A stretch of DNA of 15,464 bases from a virus (Duplodnaviria; Heunggongvirae; Uroviricota; Caudoviricetes). Under the pieces are notes generated by a model, which had not been told where the DNA came from, did not search any database, and saw only the letters and a program-made list of their open reading frames with translations. The translations under genes and the position numbers were made by a program. Of this stretch, positions 6,474-10,047 are shown one piece after another. The number at the start of each line of letters is the position of its first letter. The first letter of the stretch is position 1. The stretch is from IMG/VR virus record IMGVR_UViG_2869953405_000005. One strand, given 5' to 3'.

Positions 6474-6807
6474 AAGAAACGCTCCATCTTACTGCTGTCA
6501 GTTCGTTTATTACTGTATCTGCGCGGATTGCCGGGCTTCATGGGAGTGGAAAGCACCCGTGCACTTTCCTGGTCCACAGGCAGAAAATGTCCGTAGACTG
6601 GCCCCCTGAATCTCCAGACAACCAGTATCACTTAAATAAGTGATAGTCTTAATACTAGTTTTTAGACTAGTCATTGGAGTACAGATGATTGATGTCTTAG
6701 GGCCGGAGAAACGCAGACGGCGTACCACACAGGAAAAGATCGCAATTGTGTCAACGCCACGATGTTTGACCGTTATTTGCCATTTTCATGCCCGCTAAAT
6801 ACTTTCG

Positions 6808-7608
6808 TTACTGATGCTGTCCGCTTTCCACCATTTCATCATCACTGATTGGCGTTGTGTTTTTGGTCAGCACTCCAGCTTTACGTTTCTCTTTTAACCG
6901 GTAACTCTCTCCTTTGATATTCAGCGTGGTTGAGTGATGTAGCAGCCGATCCAGGATCGCTGTTGCCAGTACGTGATCTCCGAACATTTCTCCCCAGTCT
7001 GCGAACCCTTTGTTTGACGTCAGTATGATGCTCGCTTTTTCATATCGACGGTTCAGTAGCCGGAAGAACAGACTGGCTTCCTCTCTGTTCATCGGCAGAT
7101 AGCCTATTTCATCCAGGATCAACACCCGGGCATAACTCAGTTGCTGTAGCTGACGCTCCAGCCGGTTTTCCTGTTTCGCTTTCATCAGTGTCGCGATCAG
7201 TCTGTCCAGTGGCATAAACAGTACCCGATGTCCCGCATCCACCGCTTTCACGCCAAGAGCTATGGCCAGATGAGTTTTTCCGACACCAGGAGGGCCCAGC
7301 AGGATCACGTTTTCGCTGCGCTCCACGAACGCCAGACCAGCCAGTTCCCGGACAACCTTACGGTCGATGCCCGGCTGGAAGGTAAAGTCGAACTGCTCCA
7401 GCGTTTTGACCCACGGCAGACGAGCCTGCTTCAGCCTGGACTCCATACCGCGCTGATGCCTGCCGTTCCATTCCTGCTGTAGCGCCATGCACAGGAACTC
7501 CCGGTAGTTCAGCTCTTTTTTAGCTGCCTGTTCCAGCAGGCTTTCAACGTGATAACTCAGATGCTCCATTTTCAGGCGACTCAGCAGGACTTCCAGTTCA
7601 TGCATCAC
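6808..7608 (-). CDS. istB: IstB-like ATP-binding transposition helper (IS21 family)
   Basis: 266 aa with Walker [12 protein letters not shown] and Walker B-like LILDEIGY. Confidence 0.9.
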
Positions 7609-8777
7609 AACAGCTCCTCATAGGCACTCAGTGGTCGATGTTCCACCTGACTGACCTGCTGCCAGAGCGGGGCGTGATGCTCCGGCACTGTCTGCCAGCC
7701 AGACGATGCTGAACAGAGGCGATGTGAGGCCACCAGTTTCTCATTACTGTAGATCCGCAACTCGTCATCCAGCGATATTCGTATCGATACCGGCTGACCA
7801 CACAGCGCTTCGGGAACGCTGTAACGATTACCACCAACCTCGATATAGCTGTCCCAGGACACATGGCGGATATCGAAGTAACTGGTATCGAAGTCTGTAT
7901 CCGGTAACGGCTGCAGATGTTCCTGCTCCAGCGCGAAGCGCTGTTCCGGCGTTTCTTTGAACTGGCGAAGCTCCCGTTTGTCAGCCACATCGGCTATCCA
8001 TTGCTCCAGTTGTTGATTGACATGAGTGAAGCTGTCGAACCTGCGGTACCGGACGAAGAAGTTCTCCTTGAGGTATTTCACCATCCGCTCAACCTTACCT
8101 TTTGTTCTGGCCCTGCGTGGACGGCATGCCCGTGGCAGGAAGTTATAGTAGTCAGCCAGCAACAGGAATCCGGAGTTGAACACGACTTTCCCGTTGTTAT
8201 TCTTCAGCACCGCAGCCTTCTGGTTATCAACCAGCACCGTTTTCACACAACCACCGAAGTAGCGGAAGGCGCGAACCAGTGATTCGTAGGTATGCTCAGC
8301 ATCCTGTTTTGGTGCGGCGAAGACATGGAAGCTGCGGGAGAACCCCAGCGTATTAACCGCAAAGTTAACTTTGCACCGTTGCCCGGCAACCTCCACCTCA
8401 ACTTCGCCCCAGTCATGCTGGAGCTGGTATCCAGGCTGAGTTTCGAAGCGAACTGTTCTTTTTGACGGACGCATTTTACGTTTGGGCTGGATGTAGTAAC
8501 GCAGCATGGAACGTCCGCCCGTATAACCCATTGCCTTAATCTCCGCGAAGATAACCTCGCTATTCCAGACATTCTCTGCCAGGCGCATGTCGATGTAATC
8601 CATAAACGGTTTCAGCTTAACCATTTTGTGGCGGGTCTTTCTGGCTGGCGGTTCAGGGTATTTGAGGTAGCGTCTGACCGTCCGTTCAGAGCAACCAATC
8701 TGAGTCGCAATATCGACGATGTACGCGCCCTGCTGGCGCATTTGCTTTATCATGTAAAAGTCCTCTCTGCTCAGCAT
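7605..8777 (-). CDS. istA: IstA transposase (IS21 family)
   Basis: 390 aa, N-terminal HTH followed by a DDE-type core; closely matches recalled IS21 IstA. Confidence 0.9.
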
Positions 8778-9025
8778 GTTGATGTCCTTTCTGGTGTGAG
8801 AACCTTAAGGAAACAACATGGTGTAGCAGCCAGCCAGTTATTTCTCTGGCGTAAGCAATACCAGGAAGGAAGTCTTACTGCTGTCGCCGCCGGAGAACAG
8901 GTTGTTCCTGCCTCTGAACTTGCTGCCGCCATGAAGCAGATTAAAGAACTCCAGCGCCTGCTCGGCAAGAAAACGATGGAAAATGAACTCCTCAAAGAAG
9001 CCGTTGAATATGGACGGGCAAAAAA

Positions 9026-9931
9026 GTGGATAGCGCACGCGCCCTTATTGCCCGGGGATGGGGAGTAAGCTTAGTCAGCCGTTGTCTCCGGGTGTCGCGT
9101 GCGCAGTTGCACGTCATTCTCAGACGAACCGATGACTGGATGGATGGCCGCCGCAGTCGTCACACTGATGATACGGATGTGCTTCTCCGTATACACCATG
9201 TTATCGGAGAGCTGCCCACGTATGGTTATCGTCGGGTATGGGCGCTGCTTCGCAGACAGGCAGAACTTGATGGTATGCCTGCGATCAATGCCAAACGTGT
9301 TTACCGGATCATGCGCCAGAATGCGCTGTTGCTTGAGCGAAAACCTGCTGTACCGCCATCGAAACGGGCACATACAGGCAGAGTGGCCGTGAAAGAAAGC
9401 AATCAGCGATGGTGCTCTGACGGGTTCGAGTTCTGCTGTGATAACGGAGAGAGACTGCGTGTCACGTTCGCGCTGGACTGCTGTGATCGTGAGGCACTGC
9501 ACTGGGCGGTGACTACCGGCGGCTTCAACAGTGAAACAGTACAGGACGTCATGCTGGGAGCGGTGGAACGCCGCTTCGGCAACGATCTTCCGTCGTCTCC
9601 AGTGGAGTGGCTGACGGATAATGGTTCATGCTACCGGGCTAATGAAACACGCCAGTTCGCCCGGATGTTGGGACTTGAACCGAAGAACACGGCGGTGCGG
9701 AGTCCGGAGAGTAACGGAATAGCAGAGAGCTTCGTGAAAACGATAAAGCGTGACTACATCAGTATCATGCCCAAACCAGACGGGTTAACGGCAGCAAAGA
9801 ACCTTGCAGAGGCGTTCGAGCATTATAACGAATGGCATCCGCATAGTGCGCTGGGTTATCGCTCGCCACGGGAATATCTGCGGCAGCGGGCTTGTAATGG
9901 GTTAAGTGATAACAGATGTCTGGAAATATAG
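9026..9931 (+). CDS. insD: IS2 InsD (orfB, DDE transposase part)
   Basis: 301-aa ORF matching recalled IS2 InsD; overlaps the insC end at the A6G frameshift site. Confidence 0.9.
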
Positions 9932-10047
9932 GGGCAAATCCAGTCCGTTATAAAAACGCCGGTAAATCGTTCCCAGAGAACCGTGAGGTAGCCTGAGTTT
10001 AACGGACACTCCTTCCTGAAATAGAATGGCATCAGAAGGAGCTAATA

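Follow-up and report, generated by a model that had tools for sequence, protein, structure and literature searches.

IS2 and IS21 at the prophage helicase locus

The stretch of DNA analyzed here, hereafter the window, comprises 15,464 nucleotides (nt) of the IMG/VR virus record IMGVR_UViG_2869953405_000005, assigned to the Caudoviricetes. Within lambdoid prophage DNA, it carries two nested insertion sequences (ISs), which we take to be IS2 and IS21 on the basis of RefSeq labels. IS2 extends from 6594 to 9942 (3,349 base pairs [bp] including its insert) and is bordered by a perfect 5-bp duplication, GTCCG, read in the sequence at 6589-6593 and 9943-9947. Inside IS2 and on the opposite strand lies a truncated IS21 (6749-8820), whose istA and istB frames are open. 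The junction at the istA side of this copy is the subject of the present work. An earlier sequence-only reading of the stretch had proposed that one IS21 terminus was deleted there together with 46 bp of IS2.

That reading had suggested alignment to ISfinder references. We used independent genomic copies in place of these entries, and the alignments defined the termini and the deleted bases. For IS2, three independent E. coli copies of 1,331 bp (L007-L009), mutually identical and flanked by the 5-bp target duplications TTGCG, TCGAT, and ACCAG, served as a reference. Both termini are present in the window copy, which starts at 6594 with TAGACTGGCCCC and ends at 9942 with GGGGCAAATCCA. Its left piece (6594-6748, plus strand) corresponds to nt 1-155, in which the left terminus is followed by orfA/insC up to codon 21; the next base, T6749, can be assigned either to IS2 nt 156 or to IS21 nt 1. 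Positions 6594-6749 match IS2 nt 1-156 with one mismatch, a T instead of the reference A at 6680. This T precedes the orfA start codon by 5 bases and was invariant in 10 related loci (L010-L019). The right piece (8821-9942, plus strand; no mismatches) corresponds to nt 210-1331; besides the 3' part of insC and the A6G frameshift site, it holds orfB/insD along with the right terminus. Matched maximally to the references, 8814-9942 aligns to nt 203-1331 without a mismatch, which leaves a gap of exactly 46 bp (nt 157-202). In sequence (one mismatch over the 1,285 kept bases), in its two termini and 5-bp target duplication, in its full-length orfB/InsD, and in the A6G motif, the window copy resembles the IS2 elements (IS3 family) of E. 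coli and Shigella, but it differs from them in the split of orfA/insC after codon 21 by IS21 and in the deletion of nt 157-202.

The target site of IS2 could be reconstructed by joining 6250-6593 to 9948-9983 with a single GTCCG kept. Five E. coli chromosomes contain this 380-nt empty site in one piece at 100% identity, and five more match it at 99.7%, in agreement with the earlier proposal that 6474-6593 and 9948-9983 had once been contiguous. The GTCCG duplication, the presence of both termini, and the verified empty site together identify IS2 as a simple insertion. In E. coli CFSAN029787, the empty site lies within the 3' end of a prophage gene annotated as replicative DNA helicase (L020, 4221-5612), upstream of a gene for an 85-amino-acid protein that is also found in the window at 6216-6473. 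Judging from this comparison, the helicase gene of the lambdoid prophage is disrupted by IS2 at its 3' end. Beyond IS2, the remnant of this gene amounts to 36 bp (9948-9983), and an IS600 starts at 9984. The remaining helicase gene and the upstream replication genes of CFSAN029787 are missing at the window position.

The sequence inside IS2 is common. Positions 6750-8813 were matched at 99.9-100% identity by hundreds of records from E. coli and Shigella sonnei, and the RefSeq label on the matching records was "IS21-like element IS21 family" istA and istB. Six independent full-length copies (L001-L006) and a seventh (L024) were used as the IS21 reference. The sequence common to the six is exactly 2,130 bp long, starting in window orientation with TGTCAACGCC and ending with CACTGGCGCTGACA, and each copy is flanked by its own 4-bp target duplication (GTTG, TATA, CTTT, GTCA, GCAT, and ATAC; TAAC in the seventh). 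The window copy (6749-8820, minus strand) corresponds to nt 59-2130 in the istA-to-istB orientation, and 2,071 of its 2,072 bases are identical to the intact copies, the sole mismatch being at 8150. Its istB-side (right) terminus is intact, with TGTCAACGCC from 6749 onward, and its right terminal inverted repeat (6749-6788, minus strand) contains the two GCCA-containing repeats R1 (GTCAACGCCACGATGT) and R2 (TTATTTGCCATTTTCA).

On the istA side, the reference sequence runs 58 bp further than the window copy. As the sequence-only reading had suspected, one IS21 terminus is gone. The lost 58 bp hold the terminal TG and both left-end GCCA-type repeats (positions 2-17 and 26-41). Complete terminal repeats at both ends and a target duplication inside IS2, named in that reading as a result that would speak against it, were not observed. 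Having lost the left terminal inverted repeat with L1 and L2, the element has one IS21 end, not two. The two flanks of the copy read ATTG and TGGT/GTGT, and the flank expected to hold the second ATTG is deleted. With its left end missing, the element is classed as a truncated IS21 remnant and not as a functional IS21. It shares the overlapping istA and istB genes and the intact right terminal repeat with the 2,130-bp copies on E. coli and S. sonnei plasmids and chromosomes, but it differs from them in the loss of the left 58 bp with L1 and L2, in the absence of a retained target duplication, and in the substitution H210Y in IstA.

Both IS21 genes are intact, as had been noted before. istB (6808-7605/7608, minus strand) encodes the helper AAA+ ATPase with an IstB_IS21 domain (NF038214, 301.9 bits, cutoff 200; PF01695, 302.6 bits), and its product is identical to WP_000544828.1 of intact IS21 copies. 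istA (7605-8777, minus strand) encodes the 390-amino-acid DDE transposase (NF033546, 280.2 bits, cutoff 160) with the Pfam domains rve (residues 113-222) and Mu-transpos_C_2. Its only difference from the intact copies is H210Y, caused by the A at 8150. This position is polymorphic in the truncated copy and is a G in three of the related loci (L011, L012, and L018). We considered that H210Y might be a private decay mutation of a dead copy, which was ruled out, since a full-length IS21 with the duplication TAAC at an unrelated chromosomal site of another strain (L024, CP049175.1, 3900-6029) encodes the same Y210 protein. The shared Y210 suggests either that gene conversion has occurred from one IS21 copy to another or that a Y210 allele is in circulation. 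Upstream of istA, a 36-bp leader remnant is left (8778-8813, minus strand). The distance from the istA ATG to the junction is thus 36 bp if only unambiguous bases are counted, the figure given approximately in the sequence-only reading, or 43 bp including the ambiguous CAACATG, compared with 101 bp from ATG to terminus in intact copies.

The IS2 genes fared differently. orfB/insD (9026-9931, plus strand) is intact, and its 301-amino-acid product matches NF006918 over the full length (1-301 of 301; 727.6 bits, cutoff 597). orfA/insC is cut by IS21 after codon 21, which bears out the earlier statement that insC is split by an istA/istB element. Both of its halves are recognizable, split and partly deleted, and the A6G frameshift site (AAAAAAG) is located at about 9020. 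The truncated insC' frame (6685-6798, plus strand) consists of 21 IS2 codons, 16 codons read from IS21, and a stop codon, giving 37 amino acids. A chimeric open frame (8628-9068, plus strand) joins 62 codons antisense to istA to InsC residues 38-121 and is probably meaningless. Given the split orfA and the deletion of nt 157-202, the window IS2 is predicted to produce neither OrfA nor OrfAB transposase, although it has kept both of its ends, through which it could in principle be moved in trans together with the IS21 remnant.

A seven-base microhomology at the IS21-IS2 junction

The bases at which IS21 gives way to IS2 cannot be assigned to one element. The 7-bp word CAACATG at 8814-8820 is common to IS21 and to IS2 nt 203-209, its context being GGAAACAACATGTTGGG in IS21 and CCGGCAACATGGTGTAG in IS2. 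Microhomology at deletion ends is a signature of deletion between short direct repeats by slipped-strand or illegitimate recombination. We modeled an ancestor composed of IS2 nt 1-155, a full IS21, and IS2 nt 152-1331, with ATTG as the target duplication, 3,465 bp in total. Removal of 116 bp from this model yields the 3,349-bp window segment with the exception of two known single-nucleotide polymorphisms (SNPs), and the deletion has eight equivalent placements. IS21 contributes 58 of the 116 bp and IS2 47 bp; the duplicated ATTG (4 bp) and one copy of the 7-bp repeat make up the difference.

A microhomology of this length is rarely produced by chance. Among 200,000 simulated random deletions crossing the IS21 end, a microhomology of at least 7 bp was obtained in 40 (0.02%, P = 0.0002). 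The missing 58 bp of IS21 and 46 bp of IS2 were not detected elsewhere in the window on either strand, with about 20% mismatches allowed, and this ruled out inversion or relocation of the missing sequence within the window. The reconstructed 116-bp loss resembles short-direct-repeat deletions in enterobacteria in that a 7-bp direct repeat flanks it and a single copy has survived; it differs from them in that the mechanism is deduced from the product only and in that folding gave no sign of a stimulating hairpin.

The exact extent of the loss, the 7-bp microhomology with the 116-bp model, the empty site with the helicase gene, and the fixation in a lineage described below go beyond the sequence-only reading.

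Distribution of the nest and its neighborhood

Ten chromosomes were found via the RusA protein encoded next to the nest (L010-L019), and each of them contained all four junctions of the nest, as well as the junction between host sequence and IS600, once. A look-up with the window IstA returned the same nest with all four junction strings in 9 of 10 places. Three assemblies were common to the two sets. The composite was identical to that of the window in 2 of the 10 chromosomes found via RusA, and the other copies differed by a few SNPs; single-base insertions or deletions were present in a few assemblies and may be sequencing errors. Since the junctions are identical in all sampled carriers, all three of the events proposed below would predate their common ancestor. 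The carrier lineage is probably S. sonnei; we take the record HE616528.1 to be S. sonnei 53G, and several of the chromosomes have accessions adjoining those of S. sonnei plasmids that matched the IS21 insert. The deletion junction was absent from 5,426 complete E. coli genomes, 72,556 plasmids, and the species-representative genomes, and matches in a search of E. coli genomes with the whole window were dominated by IS copies.

One strain carries a further insertion in the same nest. At the position equivalent to 9285, CP049165.1 (L019/L030) contains an extra insertion of approximately 1,268 bp with IS600 genes inside IS2 orfB, which makes it the third IS in the nest.

Next to the helicase gene remnant, a second nest occupies 9984-12023. 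Here, an IS600 (9984-10497 and 11266-12023) is split by an IS1 (10498-11265) flanked by a 9-bp duplication (10489-10497 and 11266-11274). The IS600 at the same locus is uninterrupted in some assemblies, for example, in L012. A further IS1 (508-1276) and an intact IS600 (1738-3001; orfA, 1802-2104; orfB, 2140-2958) are situated elsewhere in the window, about half of which consists of IS sequence. Beside the IS2 nest, a lambdoid late-regulation block (4991-6473, minus strand) has retained all three of its genes, encoding a 284-amino-acid protein with antiterminator domains (PF03589), RusA (5842-6216), and the 85-amino-acid protein, for which no family match was found. At the end of the window, a gene for an IpaH-family type III secretion effector E3 ubiquitin ligase (13713-15464, minus strand; NF046045, 563.5 bits) runs off the sequence. 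Its presence assigns the window to an ipaH-bearing prophage remnant of Shigella or enteroinvasive E. coli.

In its IS content, the window is reminiscent of the IS-rich, decaying Shigella chromosomes described previously, in which reference chromosomes harbor 229 to 348 IS insertions and IS21 is among the 12 IS types of S. sonnei 53G (PMC7373316). Nested and decayed ISs are to be expected in genomes of this kind, and the window likewise holds a second nest in addition to IS1 and two copies of IS600. The nest of IS21 in IS2 itself, however, was not described in that study.

Proposed order of events, alternatives, and consequences

We consider it very likely that three successive events in an ancestor of the lineage gave rise to this structure. 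In the proposed order, IS2 would have inserted into the 3' end of the replicative-helicase gene of the lambdoid prophage, duplicating GTCCG. A full 2,130-bp IS21 would then have inserted in the opposite orientation into IS2 after nt 155, at codon 22 of orfA/insC, and presumably duplicated ATTG (IS2 nt 152-155). Finally, a single 116-bp deletion between the direct CAACATG copies, one located 58 bp inside the IS21 left end and the other at IS2 nt 203-209, would have taken out the entire left terminal inverted repeat of IS21, including L1 and L2, to which IstA binds, along with 47 bp of IS2 and the duplicated ATTG. The last step was likely a RecA-independent slipped-strand or illegitimate recombination and not a transposase reaction.

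Several results weigh against this scenario. A single-stranded DNA fold of the deleted interval revealed no hairpin that would favor slippage (z = -0.37). The left junction of IS2 and IS21 was absent from the 5,426 complete E. coli genomes and the species-representative genomes, and IS2 at this prophage site was absent from the same E. coli genomes. No intermediate, either IS2 alone at this site or a full-length IS21 at IS2 nt 155, was found in the E. coli genomes, the 72,556 plasmids, or the species-representative genomes. Both the ATTG duplication and the sequence of the three events are therefore reconstructions, and one deletion is indistinguishable in its outcome from two or more smaller ones. 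A crude consensus scan of the antisense IS2 sequence upstream of istA (8700-9400) yielded no sigma-70-like promoter.

Two or more small deletions, or a deletion combined with gene conversion, might have replaced the single microhomology-associated event. There is no intermediate to contradict such a path, and the occurrence of the Y210 IstA allele in an intact IS21 indicates that exchange between copies may take place. Yet, a single 116-bp deletion accounts for every base, whereas a multistep path would have to end in a 7-bp microhomology by chance (P of about 0.0002), and we regard it as quite improbable. A different route to the same junction would be aberrant transposition, in which IstA used an internal pseudo-end and the insert was never full-length. 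Indeed, the IS21 copy can be read as ending with AACA at 8815-8818, mimicking the terminal CA of true ends. Such a pseudo-end would nevertheless lack the GCCA repeats of the real ends, and an insertion does not remove 46 bp of its target but should generate a 4-bp duplication, in contrast to the flanks ATTG and TGGT/GTGT seen here. Moreover, a 7-bp microhomology is unexpected for transposase-mediated joining and typical of slippage, which renders this route highly improbable.

Intramolecular transposition is known to give rise to adjacent deletions, and the IS2 sequence that is missing is indeed the one beside the IS21 left end. A transposase-mediated deletion through intramolecular transposition of IS21 from its left end into nearby IS2 would, however, start at the terminus and preserve it, whereas the window copy has lost 58 bp, among them the terminal TG/CA and the two repeats. 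We therefore judge this explanation to be extremely improbable. IS-rich regions are also prone to misassembly, and the location of the junction in a 7-mer shared by both elements is where a misjoin of IS repeats might be expected. An artifact of assembly or sequencing is scarcely credible, given that the same junction strings were found in every assembly checked that has the locus (10 via RusA and 9 via IstA), that these originate from different projects, and that two of them match the composite of the window byte for byte. Deletion between the short direct repeats following the two insertions is thus the explanation we favor.

With respect to mobility, each end of an IS21-family element comprises two repeats, and two terminal inverted repeats are brought into synapsis by a tetramer of IstA (PMC10122671). 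From this requirement for two ends, it follows that the one-ended IS21 remnant is probably immobile and would be expected to stay in place even where other copies provide IstA and IstB in trans. The sequence-only reading had called the element probably immobile in cis, and the same synapsis requirement (PMC10122671) argues for that view.

The one-ended istAB cassette might conceivably supply IstA and IstB in trans from a fixed position and serve mobile IS21 copies as a gene conversion partner, or the whole 3.35-kb composite might be mobilized via the intact IS2 ends by IS2 transposase provided in trans. The istAB frames were open across the assemblies checked, and Y210 is shared with an intact copy; on these grounds, the cassette could serve as a source in trans, albeit we consider such roles unlikely. 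Both elements are well known already, and the nest is an ordinary fossil among the many mobile elements of Shigella. Its significance hardly extends beyond annotation, and it has no bearing on open questions of transposition.

For annotation of the locus, our analysis implies that it should be described as a defective IS2 with a disrupted orfA and a 5'-truncated IS21 remnant, rather than as two active elements. The four junctions provide stable markers common to every examined assembly with the locus, and the nest represents a clean, fully reconstructible case of a nested IS that was, in all likelihood, inactivated by a deletion between short repeats.

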